A stretch of DNA of 64,000 nucleotides from an uncultured delta proteobacterium (lineage in GTDB: Bacteria > Desulfobacterota > BSN033 > UBA1163), in contig CAVOIK010000022.1 of NCBI GenBank assembly GCA_963695895.1, forward strand, positions 70,485-134,484. Reading direction: 5' to 3'. The number at the start of each line of letters is the position of its first letter. Position 1 is the stretch's first letter. The notes beneath the pieces are model-generated. The model had not been told where the DNA came from. It was given only the letters and a program-made list of their open reading frames with translations, and ran no database searches. Positions 2 to 36,113 of this stretch are shown here, in pieces. The position numbers and the translations under genes were made by a program.

Positions 2-1364
2 ACCGTGGTTGTGGAGAGGATGGAGGGGCTTTCAGAGTCTCACCGGGCGACGTTCGTCCGGGTCGACAACAGCCGTCAAGCGCTGGCACAGATGGCGACA
101 AACTTCTATAGCCACCCTTCGTCGAAAATGACACTGATCGGTGTGACTGGAACGAATGGAAAAACAACGACCACGTTTCTTCTGGAGTCAATCTTGAAGA
201 AGGCTGGGTTTCGCGTCGGGGTCGTTGGCACGATCAACACCCGTTATGGAGAAACGGTGATTCAAGCCGTGAACACCACTCCCGAGTCCCTGGACCTTCA
301 AAGGATGTTCTCGGAGATGGCAGAGAACGGTGTCTCACACGTGATCATGGAAGTCTCCTCCCATGGCCTCGATTTGGATCGAGTGCTCGGGTGTCAATTT
401 GATCTTGCCGTGTTCACGAATTTTGCTTCGGATCATCTCGACTACCATCAGACCCTTGAACATTACTTTCAGAGCAAGCGAAAACTCTTTTGCCCATTAT
501 CTGGCGACGAGCCCGAAGCCTAAGCGGTTTGCCATAACGAATGGTGACGATCCTAAGGGAGAAATCATCGCGAGAGGATGTAACGTTCCTGTCGTCCGCT
601 ATGGTTTGAAATCCCCCGGGGAAGTGAGCGCACACCTGATAGAATCGACCTTCGAGGGTCTCCGGTGCCGCATTCGAACACCTCAGGGCGAATTTGATGT
701 TCATTCCGAGCTGATCGGCGGATACAATCTGTACAACATCCTCGCTGCAGTTTCTGGCGGGGTGGCCATGAACCTCCCCAACCCGGTGCTGAAAGAGGGC
801 ATCGAAGCGGTAAAGCGGGTTGCAGGAAGGTTCGATAAGGTCGAAAATCAAAAAGGGATCAACGTCATTGTCGATTATGCCCACAAGAAGGATGCCCTGG
901 AGCAGGTTCTCTTGGGGTTACGAAGTGTGCTTTCGGATGCCTTTCGAGGTTCCTCCGCGATCGGGAAGGTCATCACCGTCTTCGGATGCGGTGGTGATCG
1001 CGATCGAACTAAACGACCGTTGATGGGCGAGGTGGCAGGCAAGTACAGTGACCTCTGCATTCTGACGTCGGACAATCCGCGCACAGAGGATCCCGTGGCC
1101 ATCATGGAGGAGGTTGAAAAAGGCCTTCGCACACTGAATCTGAAAAAATGGCGGCCTGACGAGATCAGCCTCTGGCGGTCAGCCAAGGGATATCTCTCCA
1201 TCGCCGATCGGAGAGAGGCCATTCGGACGGCGATACGATTGGCTCAGCCCTCGGATACGGTTCTGATCGCAGGGAAAGGCCATGAGAATTACCAGATTCT
1301 CGGTAAAAAGAAGTTTCCTTTCGATGACCGGGTTGAAGCGAGAAAGGCGCTGGAGGAAGCGTGA
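2..1364 (+). CDS. murE: MurE (UDP-MurNAc-L-Ala-D-Glu:diamino acid ligase); 5' end truncated by the window edge; one frameshift
   Basis: ORFs 5..523 and 363..1364 read as a single Mur ligase, with P-loop 'GVTGTNGKTTT' plus 'GCGGDRDRTKRPLMG', 'LTSDNPRTEDP' and 'AGKGHENYQ'. The two frames join ('KRKLF|AHYLATSPKPKRFAITNGDDP') if the T4 run at 488-491 is read as T3. The P-loop lies only ~47 aa into the ORF, so about 60 aa are missing upstream of the window. Confidence 0.9.
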
Positions 1365-16396: not shown

Positions 16397-17152
16397 GTGA
16401 GTAATGACTCAATGAACTCTGTAGTTCAACGACTGGAGGTTGTGATGAAGACTGAAAACGTTTCTTTTGAAAGCGAAGGACAGAAGATTGCTGGAGTTCT
16501 CCATCTTCCTGATAAATCCAAGCCTCCCTGTGTCATCGCATCTCACGGTCTTCTCGCGAGCAAGGACAGCGACAAGTATGTGCTTCTTGGAGAAAAATTG
16601 ACTCAGGAAGGCATTGCTTTCCTGCGTTTCGACTTCAGGGGATGCGGTGAGAGTGAAGGGAAAATTGAAGAGAACACGATCACCGGAAGGATCGCGGACT
16701 TGGATTCCGCAATTAACTTCATTCGATCCTATCGGGGCTTGAAAAAGCGGATCGGGCTCCTGGGGTCAAGCCTTGGAGGCTACGTTTCGTTAATCAAGGC
16801 TTCGAGAGATCCGGAGATTCGGACATCGGTGGTCTGGGCGACCCCTTTTCATCTCGATGATCTCGAAGCAAAAAAGGGGACAGAGGACATTCCTCTCCTG
16901 GGAGAGACCTTTTTCACCGACCTCTTAAACTACCGCCTCCAGCCTCTCTTGCAGCAGGTGACCCACTGTTTGGTGATTCACGGTGAGAAGGATGAAATCG
17001 TTCCCATGGATCAGGGATGGGAGATCTTCCATCTTCTTGGGTCTCCCAAAGAGATACGCATCATCGAAGGAGCTGACCACCGGCTAACCCATCCAGACCA
17101 TCGCCAGCGGGCAACGGATCTCAGTGTGGCGTGGTTTAAGAAGTTCCTTTGA
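16397..17152 (+). CDS. alpha/beta-fold hydrolase
   Basis: 251-aa ORF with nucleophile elbow 'GSSLG' and a C-terminal 'GADHRL' histidine. The true start may be the internal Met at 16445. Confidence 0.65.
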   Translation: MSNDSMNSVVQRLEVVMKTENVSFESEGQKIAGVLHLPDKSKPPCVIASHGLLASKDSDKYVLLGEKLTQEGIAFLRFDFRGCGESEGKIEENTITGRIADLDSAINFIRSYRGLKKRIGLLGSSLGGYVSLIKASRDPEIRTSVVWATPFHLDDLEAKKGTEDIPLLGETFFTDLLNYRLQPLLQQVTHCLVIHGEKDEIVPMDQGWEIFHLLGSPKEIRIIEGADHRLTHPDHRQRATDLSVAWFKKFL

Positions 17153-17502
17153 ACTGGCTTTTCAGGCCGATTGCTCGATTGTCTTTGGCCTACCTACAGA
17201 TGCAGAGCAGCCAGCGACCCTCCTGTACAATTTTTCGCTCTTGGTTTTGTTAGCAACTCAATCCTATTTTACCCATCCATTGACGATTTGCCTACCCATG
17301 TGCGTATTTTAACCATTTGGATTCTTCACGCCACTGTAACCCTTCATAGAGGTTGACCTTTCTCAGAGTGTGGAAAACAGCGTGGGCGGTAAATTTCTAT
17401 ACATGGAATTTTCAGATTTTGTAACCTCGCTGATGGCCTGATCTGCTCTTCTAGTCATAAAAATATCAATAACTTCAAACGCTTATAGACATCACATGCG
17501 GC

Positions 17503-17518
17503 TGGCACAATACTTGCT
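17503..17518 (+). promoter_or_regulatory. sigma-54 (RpoN) -24/-12 promoter
   Basis: 'TGGCACaatacTTGCT' matches TGGCAC-N5-TTGCW exactly, with the canonical GG-to-GC spacing. It lies in a 590-nt ORF-free AT-rich spacer, 224 nt upstream of ATG 17742. Confidence 0.6.
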
Positions 17519-17741
17519 ATATAGCAGACTGTAATCATTAAGCAATAACCAGAAAGGGGGGGCCATGAGGCTTTGAAGGAGCGCACTATGGATTTGCGCG
17601 TGTAGGACAGTTAATTTGTCAGAGTTAGTCTATCAGGCTGAATGTCGGGGAAAGAGTGAAAAAATGAATGTGAGTATGAGTAAAACTGAGATAAAGAAAA
17701 GACCTATTAGAGGAGGGTCTAGCGTGAAAGGAGGGTTTGAA

Positions 17742-19782
17742 ATGAAGAAGAATTACTTGGCATTGGTGATGGGGTTATTCCTGCTGTCAGTAGGAGTGTC
17801 GGCATGGGGTGCTGATGTGACGCAGGAGCTGTATTTCACAAAGAAGACAACTCTTACGGCTGGCGCAACCTATACTTTTAGGTTCAGTCTATGGGATGCC
17901 GAGACAGGGGGGAACTGAGGTATGGTCTGAAGAGAAACAGGTCACATTGATCAGGAACGACCATAAAGACTTATCTTGGAGACTCGGAATTGACACCATT
18001 CGTTGGAGTTGATTTTTCCCAGCAGTATGTGGGTTCAGGTGGAACGAGTAGAAAAAAAATGACGACCTTGTCGTGATAGGAAACAAGAGGAGCAAGCTTG
18101 GAGTCGTTCCTTACGCCATGTGGGCGGTAGTATCTGCAGAATGGTCCTGTAGGAGCGACTGGACCGACAGGACCCACGGGTGACACAGGGCCGACTGGAC
18201 CTACGGGGCCTACAGGAGCGACTGGAGCCGATGGGTCCGATTGGAGCTACAGGGTCCTACGGGAGCGACAGGAGCCGACTGGAGCCAGGTCCGACTGGAG
18301 CTTACAGGTCCTACGGGAGCCAGGTCCACGGGAGCACAGGGCCGACTGGAGCCACAGGGAGCCACGGGTGTCGGCAACTTTCGCGGTGCGTGGGATGATT
18401 GCAACACCGTATGCTACTCGATGACATTGTAACGGACCTGGGTCAGACCTGGCTGGCACTCAGCCCGACTACAGGCGTCCAGCCCGTCGAGGGCGCCGAT
18501 TGGACGCTCATGGCTGCAAAGGGCGACACGGGAGCGACAGGGGCGACAGGAGCCGATGGATCGATTGGACCTACAGGGCCTACGGGGCGACTGGGCCAGG
18601 GAACTGGAGCGACTGGGCCACAGGATCCACAGGAAATACGGGAGCGCCGGGTGCTACAGGAGCCACGGGAGCCACAGGAGATCCGGACTGCGGGCCACAG
18701 GGCTCGACTGGAACAGGTATAACAGTGTCGCCCGGGAGACACTAGATAATACTGGGACGACCACTTCGACCAGGTCTATACGGGTACTCTTAGCGGCACC
18801 GACCGGCACCAGGACCCATCGGGTGACGGTTACTGACCGGATCCAGTGTTATGTGATCCTCACGAGCTCTGTTCTCGCTGCAGGTAGCCAGACTGCGTAC
18901 GTGAGCTTCGCTGTTTAGGCAACGACAATGACCTACTGCTGACAGTACGACCCTTGTGCGTCAACATGGGACTAGCAGTGGCACCGGTCTGATCCAGGCC
19001 AGCGCAGTTAGGGTGTCACCGGACTCACCGCCGGGTCAACTGGACCCACAGGGCCGACTGGAGCCACAGGTGCTACGGGAGCCACAGGGGCAACCGGAAC
19101 CACGGGTTAACTGGAGCCACAGGTCCGACTGGAGCCGCACGGGTGATCAGGGTATTCAGGGTGTAGCAGGTCCGATTGGGCCGCAAGGGCCGATTGGGCC
19201 GACTAGGACCACAGGAGTCCAATAGGTCTTACGGGAGCCACAGGGGCTACGGGAGCCACAGGGCCGACGGGAGCCACAGGTGCGACGGAGCCAGGTCGCT
19301 ACGGGAGACACAGGGGCAACCGGAGCCACAGGTCCTACGGGAGACACAGGTCCGACTGGAGCCACAGGGCTTTCAGGAATCGCTGCCCAGGCTTTTTCAG
19401 CTGAGTCGGTGCTGCTAGTATCCCGACTAGCTCGGAATTTCTCGCACCGCCGGCGAGTGTGACCATTTCTGCTTCAGGGCAGAAAATTTATGTCAATTCG
19501 GTCAAGGGCTCTTGGCAGTTCGGCAGCGGGTGGAGCGAGCAATCTCGTTCTCGATATATGCTATAAAGAGTCAGCTGGTTCGATCACAGCCGTGGGACAC
19601 TCCTGAGTATGCAGGTCCCGCAGAATACCAAGGTGCCTATGGGCTTGAATGCGATCATTAGCGGCCTTGCCACAGGAACCTACGACGTGGGGCTATGCGG
19701 GTACGCTTCGGACTGCTGATCATCAGACTGGGATTTAATCGATTATGGATACACCTCTGCTTTCGTGTTTGTCACTCCATAA
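17742..19782 (+). pseudogene. collagen-like (Gly-X-Thr triplet repeat) secreted protein locus, heavily frame-disrupted; possibly two tandem genes
   Basis: RBS aaaggaggg precedes ATG 17742, followed by signal peptide 'MKKNYLALVMGLFLLSVGVSAWG'. The N-terminal domain ('TYTFRFSLWDAETGG'...'VVPYAMWA') can be read only by hopping frames. GXY tracts appear in all three + frames: '[22 protein letters not shown]' (ORF 18399), '[19 protein letters not shown]' (ORF 18500), 'GDQGIQGVAGPIGPQGPIGPT' (ORF 18956) and '[26 protein letters not shown]' (ORF 19280). The last stop is TAA 19780-19782. Confidence 0.7.
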
Positions 19783-19840
19783 TCGCAGGGGAGGGCGGGG
19801 CATGATCCCGCCCTTTACGATCCCACTGTAATTGTCAGAC

Positions 19841-19880
19841 GAACAAGAGCAGGGCCGATTCGGCTCTGCTCTTGTTCTTT
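19841..19880 (+). terminator. rho-independent terminator after the collagen-like locus
   Basis: 17-bp stem 'gaacaagagcagggccg / cggctctgctcttgttc' with one mismatch, followed by 'ttt'. A smaller GGGCGGGG/CCCGCCC hairpin precedes it at 19793-19813. Confidence 0.7.
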
Positions 19881-19887
19881 CCAGTGC

Positions 19888-19917
19888 TTGACAAACATCT
19901 TGATATCATGCAATAAA
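19888..19917 (+). promoter_or_regulatory. candidate sigma-70 promoter for the GT-C/TPR gene
   Basis: A perfect -35 TTGACA (19888-19893) is followed 17-18 nt later by a weak -10 ('caataaa'), about 95 nt upstream of ATG 20012. Confidence 0.3.
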
Positions 19918-20011
19918 CCGACTAAGATTCGTACGCTTCGTCACTCAAAGATTATTTTACAAATGACTCTTCGATATATTTATCTCGGACCCTCAGTGGC
20001 GAGGCTCGGTA

Positions 20012-22153
20012 ATGCGCACTCTTATCCAACATAAAAAAAGTCCCGGAGGCGTGCATCGAGGGACAAGATACTTCATCTAAGACAAGCCAACCGAGTTTTC
20101 CTCATTCTTGCCTTCGTTCTGTTGATTGGGACCCTCATTACCTATTCCAATCATTTCAGGAACGGCTTCCATTTTGACGATTCCCATGTCATCGTCGAAA
20201 ACGTCCACATTCGAAATGTCCGCAATATTCCCCTTTTTTTTAAAGATGGCACGACGTTCAGCTCCCTGCCGAGCAACCAGTCCTATCGGCCCGTCGTGTC
20301 GGCAACCCTTGCCATCGATTACTGGCTGGGCAAAAGCCTTAATCCTTTCTATTTTCATCTCACCACATTCATCCTCTTCCTGTTTCAGGGGGTGCTCATA
20401 TTTCTTCTCTATTTCAAGATAGTAAATCTATCGTTGGAACATCCCTGGAATAAGTTTTTGGCGCTCTTTGCAACCGCCTGGTACATGCTTCACCCTGCCA
20501 ACGCAGAGACGATCAACTACGTCTCTGCCCGCTCGGATACCCTCTCGACCCAGTTTCTTCTCTTTGCCCTCGTGCTCTTCATCTATTCGTCACGGTGCAG
20601 GAAATGGCACCTCTATCTGATCCCCGCGGGAATCGGCATCCTCGCCAAACCGATTGGCAGGAGTCTTTCCCATATTGCTATTGGCCTATGTCATCCTTTT
20701 TGAGAAGAGAATATCCCTGGCAGAGATCTTCCACAGAAAAAACTTTCCGGCCCTCGCTTCCTCCTTCAAGAAGGTTCTGCCTTCGCTTCTCTTCTGCGGG
20801 ATCCTGGTGGTCTTTATGGGAAGGATGGGGCCAGCCACATGGGTTGCGGGCGGATCGTCTTTCTATCACTATGTCATCACACAACCTTTTGTCATTCTCC
20901 GTTACTTCACGACCTTCTTCTTGCCCATCGATCTGAGCGCAGACACAGACTGGACACCATTCAAGACCCTTCTGGATGGGCGGTTTTTCATCGGAATATT
21001 GTTTCTGCTGGGACTGTTGTGGGCGGCTGTGGCTTCATCAAGAAAAGAGAGAGGACGACCAATTTCCTTTGGTATCCTTTGGTTTCTCATTGCGCTGCTC
21101 CCAACCAGCCTCACCCCGCTTGCCGAGGTCATGAACGACCACCGGATCTTTTTCCCCTACGTGGGCCTGACGATGAGTGTCTCCTGGGCCATTGCACTGG
21201 GGCTATCTCATCTGAAAAAGTCGGTGCAGCCGGCGCAGACATTTAACCGTGCACTGGTCGTGGCAATATTGATCGTCCTCGCGGCTTATGCATACGGAAC
21301 GTATCAGAGGAACAAGGTATGGCTCACGGATGAGACGCTCTGGCGTGACGTCACGGAAAAAAGTCCAAACAACGGCAGGGGACTTATGAATTACGGCTTG
21401 GCCCTGATGGCAAAGGCCGATTACGCGGGGGCGGAGCGGTATTTCAACAAAGCCCTTGCCTTGACGCCCAACTATTCCTTTCTTCTCGTCAACCTGGGAA
21501 TACTGAAGGAGGCCACCGGCCACCCGGTCGAGGCGGAGTCTTTCTTTAGAAGGTCCGTCGTCTCCAACACCGGATACCCCGGATCCTATTTCTATTACGG
21601 GCGCTTCCTAAAAAGGCAGGGACGGATCGATGAGGCGATCCAGAACCTGAACAAGACGCTTGCTTTGGTCCCTGCGCATCTGGATGCAAGACATCTCTTA
21701 ATGGATATCTATTTCGAGCGCAGGGAATTCACTGAACTGGCAACCCTGGCTCAGAGCACACTTGATCTTGCACCTGAGGACGAGAAGGCGACGGCTTACC
21801 TTCGTGCGACCCAAAAAGGGAACCCTCTGCTTCAGGTCGCCTTGGAAAGGGTGAAGACTCATCGAACTCCTGAGAACCTTCTTGAATTGAGTTTCAGGTA
21901 TTATGAGGCAGGCCAATTCACAAAGTGCATTGATGCGGCCGAAGAGGCGCTGAAATTGAAGTCTGACTATGGTCCGGCTTACATTAATATCTGTGCCGCC
22001 TACAATGCGCTGAAGCAATGGGACAGGGCGATCGAGGCAGGGGAGAAGGCCGTCCGACTCAACCCGAATAATCCACTGGCAAAGAATAACCTGGCCTGGG
22101 CAAAAAGGGAAAAGATGAAATCAGAAAAGGTCAAAGCTCCGACCGCGGAGTAA
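20012..22153 (+). pseudogene. GT-C-fold, TMTC/PMT-like membrane glycosyltransferase with a C-terminal TPR domain; two apparent frameshifts (may be sequencing errors)
   Basis: ATG 20012 ('MRTLIQHKK') joins the ORF 20122 frame if the A7 run at 20033-20039 is A8. ORFs 20122..20703 and 20654..22153 join at about 20653-20656 ('AKP|MAGVFPILL'). The first loop carries 'HFDDSHVIVEN', and 'HPANAETINYVSARSD' resembles DUF1736/TMTC. There are about 10 TM segments and then at least 6 TPR-like repeats ('YAGAERYFNKALALTPN', 'WDRAIEAGEKAVRLNPNN'). Confidence 0.7.
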
Positions 22154-33252: not shown

Positions 33253-35961
33253 TTACGGTGATGGCTGGATCGTAAAGGGTAAGTCGCTCGCATCATTGCC
33301 GATAGCATTCCCCCGATCGTCCAATAGGGTGACTTTCACCTTACATTTTTTCTGCTCTTTTGAAGCCGACGGAACAGTCCAATCGCGTGTTCCCGGGTTT
33401 GTGTCAAGGGTCTCAATGGAAATCCAGGTCGTTCCATCTTTTGTATAAGATAACTTCACTTTGCTCACAGACCTGATAGTATCATAGGTAACCCAGGTGA
33501 TGGTCTCCGTCGCTCCCGGAGTAAGGGTTTCTCCTCCGTTGGGATAGGTCAACTTCACCACCTCAATCCTAAAGGGATCATCCGACGTATCAGCGCCAAC
33601 CTGCCCTCCTGATAAATCGTAGAGGATCACCTTGACCAAGCACGACTTCTTGTTTCCGTTGGGCGCAGGGACGGTCCAGTCATGCGTCCCGGGATTGCCA
33701 TCCATGGGTTCAATGAGAGTCCAGGAAGACCCTCCATCCTTGCTATAGAACAATTTTACCTCTCGCTACATCCCTGACAGTCGCTTGGGTTGTCCAGGTA
33801 ATGGTTTGGGTTGTGCCCGCCTCCCAGACCTCGCCCCCGTTGGGCGACGTCAACCGGGTGACCTCTATCGTAAAGGCACTGTCTGATTTATCCATTCCCC
33901 TCCTTTTCCCTTCACTGTCAACCCCTTTTACCCGAATGAGGCAGTTTCTCAGGTTCTTCGTCGGCTTGGGCACGGTCCAGTTATGGGTGGTCTCGGTCAA
34001 CTCTTTCGCGATCAACTTCCATGTACTTCCTCCATCAGTAGAATACTCGACCGTATACGTAAGGTCAGAGGCCAGATCTCCGATCGCCTCCCATTCGATC
34101 GTATGGGTCGATCCAGAAGGAATGATCTCGTCCTCCATTGGGTGACAGAACATTCAAGTCGACCGTGTAAGACATCACCTCGTTTGAAAACGCTGAACCG
34201 CCCGCACCATTATAAGCCCAAACGGCATAATAGTAGATCGTATTTGCCGTAACCTCCGTATCAAGATAACTCGTCACGTCGGTCCCCACCGTGGCGATCG
34301 TTTCATACGTGCCCCGGACACCCGCCTTCCTCTTTATCTTGAATCCCGTCTCGTTATCGGATCGGTCCTGCCAAGAGAGGGAAATCTTACTCTCGTTCTT
34401 GACGGTCGCTGCAAGACCGGTGGGCCCATCAGGGAACAACCGCTTTGTTCGGAACTTTTGGATCCGATTGTTATTTGTATCGGTGACAAAGGCGTTTCCA
34501 GATGCATTCACGGCGACGCCCGAAGGAGAATCAAATTGGCCATCTCCCGTCCCGGCAGCTCCCCAATGTGTGATATACTTGCCTCCTCCGTCAAACACCT
34601 GAACGCGCTCATTTCCCTGATCCACCACATAGACGTACCCGGAGGAATCCGTGCTAACCCCAACGGGAAAACTGAACTGTCCTGTCTCCGTGCCCGAGGA
34701 ACCCCACGTGAGGAGGAAATTGCCGTCTTCGTCGAATTTCTGGATCCGATGATTGTCTCTGTCCGCCACATACACATGGCCCCCACCAATCAAGAGCGAT
34801 GCCTGATGGGGAGTTAAACTCTCCGTCGTGGGAACCGGAAGAGCCCCAGGCGGACACAAAGGTAACCGAGGTTTTTGTGACACGAAATGTTTGGATCCTT
34901 TGATTCCCTTGATCCACCACGTAAACATGGCCTGACGAGTTTACGGCGACAGCGACAGGTAAGTTAAACTGTCCTTCGGCAATACCATAGTAACCCCAAG
35001 CAATCACAAAATTGCCAAGGCTATCGAATTTCTGGATCCGATGATTTCTTTGGTCTGCAACGTAGATGTTTCCAGAGGAGTCAATGGCGACCCCGGCAGG
35101 TCTGTTGAATTGCCCGCTCAATTCCCCCAAATACCCAAGCTTACCAAGATACTCACCCCGACCGCTGAATTCCTGGATTCGATGGTTTTCCTCGTCAGCA
35201 ACAAACACGTTACCAGAACTATCCACAGCAATCCCCGTGGGGAAATTGAACTGCCCGTTTCCAAACCCACCAGTACCCCACTTGTCCTTAAAACGGTAGT
35301 TGTAATCACTCACCCTGTTTCTTCGGATGGGTGTGTAGGTTTCTAATTGTGCCCAAGTCCACTCACGGTATCTTGCCTTAGGGGATGTTTGTTCCATCGC
35401 CAGAATCCCACTCCCATCGGAAAGGTAGCTGTGGAATAGTAGGATATGATCCGTCCTGACAAAGGCATCACCCGGCAAGAGGCCGCTCGCGTCGCTTCCC
35501 GCCTCACCGAGGCTATGGACATAATCATCGGAGGACGGAACATAATGCGTCCCGCAACTGACGTTCGTGCTATTGCGGGCATCGCAGAGGAAATCCTCGG
35601 CTGTAAATCGCTTGGGTAATTTCCAGCTGATGCTGACGAACCCTCCGCTGTCATTCCCATATTCTGTGGTTCCGCCTGAGGTTTCATTCATGGCCTCATA
35701 GAACTCACCCCAATTCCTCTGCGGAGTTCCTTCACAGTAAGCGATCCCGTGATAGACCTCATCGGAGGAAAAACTATGCCCACAGTTCGTGATGCTGTTC
35801 ATAGGGCTCCACGAGAAATCGATCATCTCATCTGCAATTCTCACGATCGTTTCCCCGCTCATCGCATCCCACGTATCTCCAGTCCACGACCAACCAGCGG
35901 AAGGTGCCAAAAAGATCCCGATGCAGTGCAGAACAATCACGAAGGCTACAATCTTCTTCAT
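33253..35961 (-). pseudogene. large secreted NHL-repeat / FN3 / triple beta-sandwich-repeat protein; three apparent frameshifts (may be sequencing errors)
   Basis: ORFs 34654..36048, 34065..34928, 33743..34153 and 33253..33753 are colinear pieces of one gene. ATG 35961 ('MKKIVAFVIVLHCIGIFLAPSAGW') follows RBS aaggag. There are at least 8 NHL blades ('GQFNxPxGIAVDSSGNVYVAD..NHRIQKF'), an FN3-like segment ('PTGLAATVKNESKISLSWQD...YYYAVWAYN') and three ~85-aa modules ('SPNGGE.W..G....I.W...DGG..W..I...W.VP'). The frame breaks lie near 34781-34792, 34120-34130 and 33757-33765. Confidence 0.75.
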
Positions 35962-35990
35962 GGGGTGCTCCTTTTCTTTATCTCCTGGCC

Positions 35991-36113
35991 GGCAAGTGCC
36001 CCGAAAGATCCACCCTTTAGGGTGGGGTTGAGGGGCACAATATAACACAATATAAAAGATAAAAGGAAATTACCTTCCCGGGAAGCGCCGCCCTTCAGGG
36101 CGGGGAGCTTTAC
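35991..36113 (+). repeat. composite REP/MITE-like element (~120 nt, two hairpins)
   Basis: 'ggcaAGTGCCCCgaaagatCCACCCtttaGGGTGGggttgaGGGGCAC..AT-rich..accttCCCGGGAAGCgccGCCCttcaGGGCGGGGAGCTTTAC'. It lies upstream of the NHL gene start. Confidence 0.8.

Follow-up and report, generated by a model that had tools for sequence, protein, structure and literature searches.

In C1q and in BclA, collagen stalks are capped by a C1q/TNF-type fold. BclA and the BclA-like proteins of Bacillus and Clostridioides contain Thr-rich Gly-X-Thr (GXT) tracts of variable length, while Scl1, Scl2 and Lcl are secreted surface proteins in which a globular domain is joined to a tract of Gly-X-Y (GXY) triplets that is polymorphic in repeat number between strains; the collagen-like gene of Legionella, lcl, reportedly varies in its number of repeats. 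Collagen-like phage tail fibres (PHROG 5073 and 6320; the prophage collagens of E. coli O157, PMC3368898) consist of shafts and heads that behave as exchangeable modules. Here we analyze a locus that likewise combines Thr-rich GXT tracts of variable length, secretion and exchangeable globular modules, located at positions 17742-19782 (+) of a 64,000-nt stretch of DNA (hereafter, the window) on contig CAVOIK010000022.1 of assembly GCA_963695895.1. This assembly is a 38-contig, 2.8-Mb metagenome-assembled genome (MAG) with a completeness of 74%. As assembled, the locus changes reading frame some 30-33 times over ~2 kb. We conclude that it is very likely an ordinary and probably intact gene for a secreted collagen-like surface fibre of an uncultured bacterium of the sediment type, and that its frame changes are consensus insertion/deletion (indel) errors of the MAG.

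Anatomy of the frame-corrected gene

Homologue-guided, frameshift-aware alignment combined with Viterbi decoding of the GXY phase recovered, after frame correction, a single read-through of ~680 codons from 17742 to 19782 on the forward strand. A Shine-Dalgarno element, GGAGGG (17730-17735), can be read from the sequence just ahead of the start codon ATG (17742-17744), and the arrangement GGAGGGTTTGA-ATG is kept in the related locus L008. Translation indicated the first segment to be a Sec-type signal peptide, MKKNYLALVMGLFLLSVGVSAWG (17742-17810), which is free of frame changes and can be aligned to the N-terminal ends of 22 homologues. Next comes a conserved N-terminal domain (N-domain; 17811-18135), delimited by homologue alignment, which contains TYTFRFSLWDAETGG...VVPYAMWA and TYTFRFSLWDAETGGN...VVPYAMWA. 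In a frameshift-aware alignment with protein P0001, 102 of 131 residues of this domain (78%) are identical, with zero stops. Its AlphaFold model (pLDDT 82.5) is all-beta and has weak FN3/Ig matches (TM up to 0.46), suggestive of an Ig/FN3-like beta sandwich. An earlier interpretation made without database searches (the sequence-only reading) had proposed a signal peptide and an N-terminal beta-type domain, and both are borne out by these data.

Beyond the N-domain, three collagen-like tracts are separated by two globular domains and capped by a head. Tract 1 (18136-18372), made up of GPT/GAT/GDT triplets, leads into a middle globular module (18373-18522) that begins GNFRGAWD... and bears the motif W..Y..D.V..G..W.A..P..W. 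Of the 64 residues aligned with protein P0003 in a frameshift-aware manner, 41 are identical; one copy of the module is found in the G031 protein introduced below and two copies each in P0003 and P0014, and no Pfam CBM match was obtained for it at E ≤ 0.01. Tract 2 (18523-18716), located by GXY-phase Viterbi decoding and three-frame translation, precedes an internal globular domain (18717-19035) that is homologous to the C-terminal domain of an intact 495-aa protein in genome G031 (47% identity, E 3e-10 in tblastn). Relative to G031, this internal domain is short of its last ~26 residues, and tract 3 (19036-19378) starts right there. Among the relatives collected, none beyond G031 and the present locus carries a domain of this type. 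The sequence-only reading had offered two tandem genes, with a boundary at 18918-18960, as one possible layout; the match to the G031 domain extends across the whole of that interval, and neither a start, a signal peptide nor an N-domain follows it.

The C-terminal head (19379-19782; ...ISASGQKIYVNSV...MGLNAIISGLATGTYDVGLCG...YGYTSAFVFVTP) forms the non-repetitive region that had been noted up to 19782 and ends with the stop codon TAA at 19780-19782. The last residues of the protein, ...YGYTSAFVFVTP (...FVFVTP), lack an LPXTG anchor. Frameshift-aware alignment showed 98 of 136 head residues (72%) to be identical in P0001, further homologues being P0023 and the upstream gene on the related locus L007; at the DNA level, tract 3 and the head together align to L008 at 78% identity. 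The structure model of the head (pLDDT 64, pTM 0.59) matched mostly TNF-family and C1q heads among its top 50 PDB hits, with low confidence (TM 0.45-0.54, E ≥ 0.01).

The GXT-coding DNA had been put at ~1.3 kb; it amounts to ~0.8 kb, distributed over the three tracts. After frame correction these hold ~26, 21 and 38 triplets, i.e. Gly-X-Y runs long enough for a triple helix, and the glycine register is held in nearly all of them. An intact piece of the locus matches the Pfam model PF01391 (Collagen) weakly (E 0.003), while intact homologues do so with E values of 1e-15 to 1e-26. The 17-mer CCGACTGGAGCCACAGG, whose recurrence had been noticed before, is present in exact form at 18342, 19054 and 19352 and with one mismatch at 19264, zero copies being expected by chance; it belongs to tracts 1 and 3. 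Over the whole locus, Tandem Repeats Finder (TRF) reported periods of 19, 35, 52, 54 and 70 beside 9, 18, 27 and 36 (19, 35 and 54 in tract 1; 18, 36, 52 and 70 in tract 3). Periods such as 19, 35, 52, 54 and 70 indicate that several repeat units are one or two bases out of phase.

Intact relatives share the ends of the read-through. In P0001 (441 aa), a single short module connects the N-domain to the same head, and the upstream flank beside an alpha/beta-hydrolase gene is shared as well; the match of this flank at the DNA level marks the same chromosomal site in a relative. P0023 (617 aa) joins the N-domain to two tract-plus-module units and the same head. P0003 (657 aa) combines the N-domain with the middle module and is preceded on its contig by a fibre gene with the same head as the present locus; the downstream flank of the latter (20017-20129) is matched at 89% identity after the P0003 gene. 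The ~680 aa of the read-through thus compare with 441-657 aa in relatives with the same ends, and family members extend up to 657-1091 aa, in good agreement with the intact surface fibre of ~650 aa that the sequence-only reading had envisaged. The structure of the site itself varies among relatives, with a single gene on one contig and, on another (L007), a tandem pair whose heads differ.

When 60 related genomes were searched in six frames, the N-domain was located in three genes, namely the 495-aa gene of G031, an intact 391-aa gene of G012, and a paralogue in the present genome (G000) on contig C25 (8563-9670; L005 1516-2606). The paralogue links the N-domain, via four very regular 54-nt collagen units, to a different, small C-terminal domain of the P0003 kind, and a single one-base deletion affects its repeats near L005 2095-2125.

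Frame changes at the locus and across the genome

The ~30-33 frame changes correspond to ~1 per 65 nt, and three-frame translation together with GXY-phase Viterbi decoding showed the register to jump among all three forward frames, as had been observed from the sequence. That observation had come with a minimum of 15 indels and with the suggestion to count them by frameshift-tolerant alignment; the alignment, once run, left the minimum standing as an underestimate. For the interval 18242-18385, 6-7 frame changes were counted instead of the 8-9 proposed. The N-domain has four single-base insertions (17907-17916, 17950, 18026-18029 and the A8 run at 18051-18060), its junction with tract 1 and tract 1 itself share ~8 frame changes, and the middle module has two single-base insertions (18397 and 18419). 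Tract 2 accounts for one to four (one definite change at ~18618 and at most three further small register breaks), the internal domain for ~7, tract 3 for ~5, and the head for three (~19403, 19504 and 19595). About half of the indels (16 or so) lie in non-repeat domains, and the A8 run is the sole homopolymer case. The hot spot begins past the highly conserved first 55 codons and stops at the stop codon.

At most two in-frame stops in ~680 codons are left after frame correction, TAG at 18916-18918 in the internal domain and TGA at 19716-19718 in the head, and by our own reading of the sequence the TAG can be explained by a nearby indel pair that restores the 'AVSG' of the relative. The uncorrected locus had been described as open in all six frames; each frame in fact contains stops (16, 19, 18, 23, 21 and 28, against 25.8 in shuffled sequence), the longest open stretch being 161 codons and the GXT tracts alone being nearly stop-free. 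Overlapping open reading frames (ORFs) do occur on both strands, as stated earlier, yet 15 rather than 13 were counted at a length of ≥60 aa (19 at ≥40 aa), with none above 120 codons. On inspection, six of the seven non-homopolymer insertions in non-repeat domains are readable as a pair of alternative bases for a single position of a codon: aac/aat, ttg/tta, act/acc, gtc/gta, gtt/att (V in the relative) and ttg/atg (L in the relative). This is suggestive of both alleles of a single-nucleotide polymorphism having been kept, a signature that we do not rely on, since random insertion would, by rough reckoning, fit about half the time.

Genome-wide, frameshifts were called ab initio with a hexamer-based hidden Markov model (HMM) trained on the genome itself. 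It returned ~875 robust non-boundary events in 2.34 Mb of coding sequence, i.e. 1 per 2.7 kb, 70% of them of the extra-base type, so that the claim of a locus far denser in frame changes than its surroundings is upheld. Within the locus this model calls nothing past 17918, because the frameshifts are too dense there; the local count comes from the homologue-guided and GXY-phase alignments. Events are over-dispersed along the genome (variance/mean 1.94), with 7-12 of them in some 5-kb bins, and occur 1.6-fold more often within 5 kb of contig ends (0.46 per kb) than in the interior (0.29 per kb). Homopolymer-type long-read error was considered as a general cause and rejected, as events are not enriched near homopolymers (5.0% of events against a background of 5.6%, with ab initio positions being approximate).

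Multi-frameshift clusters of 4-16 events were located in G000 at C11:3550-5786, C3:52171-53158, C14:29618-30544, C12:18434-20573, C6:1408-4245 and C25:44838-48511, several of them ≤6 kb from a contig end. The genes concerned are ftsH (9 events), trpS (4), atpB (4), an ArsA/aminotransferase pair, a TRAP transporter, and a NuoF-like/formate-dehydrogenase-like gene; in ftsH, trpS and atpB, Pfam domains run across the joints. The window itself offers a further example in murE, which is split by a single-base frameshift at 480-530 such that positions 1-113 of Mur_ligase_M fall in ORF 5..523 and positions 112-197 in ORF 363..1364. Given that essential genes cannot be dead, and that the events depend on contig ends and hence on the geometry of the assembly, these frameshifts are attributable to assembly error.

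Origin of the frame changes

Among the origins that the sequence-only reading had proposed was a decayed pseudogene. Such a gene, dead and with ~30 true indels, would account for a sequence that as given cannot encode one protein, for the TAG and the TGA that survive frame correction, for the truncated look of the internal domain, and for the finding that the equally repetitive C25 paralogue has one frameshift only. The spectrum of mutations, however, is wrong for decay. Indels outnumber nonsense codons ~15 to 1, and substitutions are not in excess: with P0003 as the outgroup, four amino-acid changes are unique to the present lineage as compared to three in the intact P0001, and with indels removed, comparison to P0001 yields dN/dS values of 0.49 (N-domain) and 0.61 (head), as in intact relatives (0.57 for the pair P0001-P0003). 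Real decay that had reached ~30 indels should have brought several-fold more substitutions, and four real indels in 108 codons should come with tens of them. The locus thus departs from a neutral pseudogene, in which a substitution excess, relaxed dN/dS and nonsense codons accompany the indels. Moreover, the glycine register is preserved once frames are corrected, the promoter motif, ribosome-binding site, start and signal peptide are conserved and undamaged, and multi-indel clusters beset the essential genes of the same genome as well. Together, these observations make decay improbable. Less credible by far is a slippage-prone contingency locus or programmed recoding, in which real frame changes would switch or diversify the fibre. 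It is true that variation is common among surface proteins and that, in other bacteria, collagen-like genes differ in their number of repeats. Yet slippage by repeat units of 9 or 18 nt is frame-neutral, whereas the indels at this locus are of one or two bases in non-repetitive contexts, a homopolymer being involved just once, and four non-repeat domains are affected. Some 30 switches in one gene would never be in phase together, and events of the same type are present in ftsH, trpS, atpB and murE.

A collapsed or misassembled repeat was the third origin proposed, and here the assembly error stands while its restriction to repeats does not, since non-repeat domains are hit too. Repeats as the sole cause were also rejected on account of the C25 paralogue, whose cleaner repeats with one frameshift argue that repetition by itself fails to explain the hot spot. 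A larger rearrangement on top of the base errors deserves more weight: the contig might join two strain alleles or tandem paralogues, one of the G031 type ending in the internal domain and one of the P0001 type ending in the TNF-like head, in which case the real genome would contain either two genes here or a shorter one. In P0001, which occupies the same site, the same head is reached in 441 aa via one short module, L007 has two tandem fibre genes at the site, and the G031-type domain is C-terminal in its sole other occurrence and breaks off here exactly where tract 3 starts. The 17-mer in tracts 1 and 3 could, in addition, mislead an assembler. Against this, the family is naturally built as 'beads on a string', with internal modules and lengths of up to 657-1091 aa. 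No second N-domain, start or intergenic remnant separates the two parts, their junction lies outside the shared repeat sequence, and no leftover contig with an alternative allele is present in the genome. On balance, we consider a chimera possible but rather doubtful.

What favours a poor local consensus is that the damage is indel-only, extends into non-repeat domains and recurs as the same fault in essential genes. The locus would be prone to this kind of error because it is repetitive and structurally variable between close relatives. Coexisting strains with differing alleles could leave reads that cannot be aligned over 17.9-19.75 kb, and a consensus resting on few or misaligned reads there would then accumulate indels. 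We infer that strain heterogeneity or low effective coverage caused the hot spot, the limits of which, after the first 55 codons and at the stop codon, fit the picture of strain variation. In half of the relatives' short-read contigs, the sequence ends within ~540 nt after the N-domain, indicating that the collagen tract is hard to assemble in general. A comparable case has been described in a collapsed-allele long-read assembly of Trypanosoma brucei Lister 427, in which read misalignment led to frameshifts at allelic internal repeats and clustered variants (PMC8445201). The errors at the present locus are likewise of the indel type, clustered and not bound to homopolymers; in contrast to that diploid eukaryote, for which reads were available, a mixed bacterial population is presumed here.

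Several observations weigh against an intact gene obscured by consensus error. The genome-wide counts, obtained ab initio, lack calibration against an error-free control genome, and some of the calls at gene boundaries are false. The C25 paralogue is repetitive and nevertheless has just one frameshift. In the collections searched, a same-species copy of the locus was not found, the best of 14 metagenome loci with the N-domain being 68% identical and the best protein 75-78%. Lastly, no relative shows the arrangement in which a G031-type domain truncated by ~26 residues is directly followed by a collagen tract; this could reflect either a real rearrangement or a chimeric contig. Given a modular family with internal globular beads, a genuine 680-aa mosaic is plausible. 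The gene that the organism actually carries is probably intact. The extreme density of frame changes would then belong to the assembly and not to the organism. This calls for caution, because such a locus would come out of annotation pipelines either as a pseudogene or as a pile of 13-19 spurious ORFs.

Fibre family, gene context and comparison with known systems

In a large protein collection, 22 proteins carry the N-domain, for which no Pfam or NCBIfam model matches were found. The N-domain family occurs in MAGs labelled Thermodesulfobacteriota, Nitrospirae/Nitrospira, Geobacteraceae, Chloroflexota, Ignavibacteria and Planctomycetales/Planctomycetaceae, among others. In P0002, P0005-P0011, P0015-P0019 and P0022, the N-domain is found without collagen and is combined with tail-fibre-like repeats and varied ends, including a Peptidase_S74 chaperone domain, Kelch repeats and other heads. 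Its occurrence on collagen and non-collagen fibres suggests the N-domain to be a constant adaptor on otherwise very different fibres. Hence, this is an uncharacterised but widespread family in which the N-domain stays constant while shafts, either collagen-like or tail-fibre-like, and heads are exchanged. To our knowledge, it has been studied by nobody. The product of the present gene is likely a secreted trimer in which the putative C-terminal jelly-roll head would nucleate the triple helix and present a binding surface, probably for a ligand. The shaft would consist of the Thr-rich tracts and beads, and the N-domain would serve to anchor the fibre to a constant feature of the cell.

A motif of the sigma-54 type with -24/-12 elements, TGGCAC-N5-TTGC (17503-17518, +), can be read 224 nt upstream of the ATG at 17742 and represents a putative promoter. 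In L007, L008 and L009 it is conserved at positions -211 to -213 relative to the start codon. The C25 paralogue, the G031 gene and more distant members of the family are preceded by motifs of a similar kind (loci L005, L002/L024, L026 and L020). The ~220-nt leader 3' of the motif contains conserved blocks; an Rfam search of 17100-20200 gave nothing meaningful, so this leader is not a known RNA. Directly after the stop codon, a GC-rich hairpin, GGGCGGG-N7-CCCGCCC (19793-19813, +), is a possible terminator to which we attach low weight, as the terminator scan did not call it and its T-run is short.

The gene is surrounded by housekeeping genes (the dcw cluster, the hydrolase and a tetratricopeptide repeat (TPR) membrane protein), with no prophage in this context. 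The downstream gene (20122-22153) is itself split by one frameshift at ~20683 into ORFs 20122..20703 and 20654..22153. Its C-terminal half consists of TPR repeats, and its N-terminal part, which has no Pfam match, is hydrophobic and looks multi-pass by eye; its start is conserved (89% DNA identity) 3' of the fibre genes on L007. This gene could encode a TMTC/PMT-like glycosyltransferase for which the Thr-rich tracts would be the substrate. Further along the window, 33253-36048 (-) encodes a large surface-type protein with NHL, FN3, Big_7 and F5/8-type-C-like pieces, in which ~3 frameshifts give rise to four overlapping ORFs.

Tentatively, the error hot spot may mark a cassette locus between the hydrolase and the TPR gene, at which Syntrophales-like strains would hold differing fibre alleles, beads and heads, expressed under sigma-54 control and probably O-glycosylated, to give a hypervariable surface organelle of uncultured anaerobes. 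If so, its logic would be comparable to that of phage receptor-binding proteins. Should the hot spot indeed mirror strain-level cassette variation, the locus would provide a useful marker of microdiversity and a candidate for an adhesion structure or phage receptor of syntrophic anaerobes.

The comparison with BclA and Scl made in the sequence-only reading is fair as an analogy and does not extend to family membership. As in BclA, a collagen stalk is followed by a C-terminal head that, by a low-confidence model, may be of the C1q/TNF type, and a candidate glycosyltransferase gene lies nearby. Where BclA carries an exosporium-targeting N-terminus, the present protein begins with a Sec signal peptide followed by an Ig-like N-domain. 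It also differs in that its several tracts are broken up by globular modules and in that the sequence match is limited to the GXY repeats. Its host is a diderm, non-sporulating MAG of the Thermodesulfobacteriota type rather than a spore-forming Firmicute, and homologues likewise come from MAGs of Thermodesulfobacteriota, Nitrospirota and others. Against the models for Scl1/Scl2 (NF038330 and NF038329), homologues score 68-144 bits where the cut-offs are 325-400, and against that for Lcl (NF046116) 78-138 bits where the cut-off is 500, in each case through the repeats only. Unlike in Scl, in which the head is N-terminal, the head is C-terminal here, and an LPXTG motif is absent. Phage tail fibres of the PHROG collection are strongly matched by the homologues via the GXY tracts and the W..Y..D.V..G..W module, and some family members share with them a terminal Peptidase_S74 intramolecular chaperone domain; in contrast to a phage fibre, the present gene sits among housekeeping genes, encodes a Sec signal peptide and is preceded by a sigma-54-type motif. 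The fibre gene therefore works like those for BclA, Scl, Lcl and tail-fibre proteins while standing outside their families.

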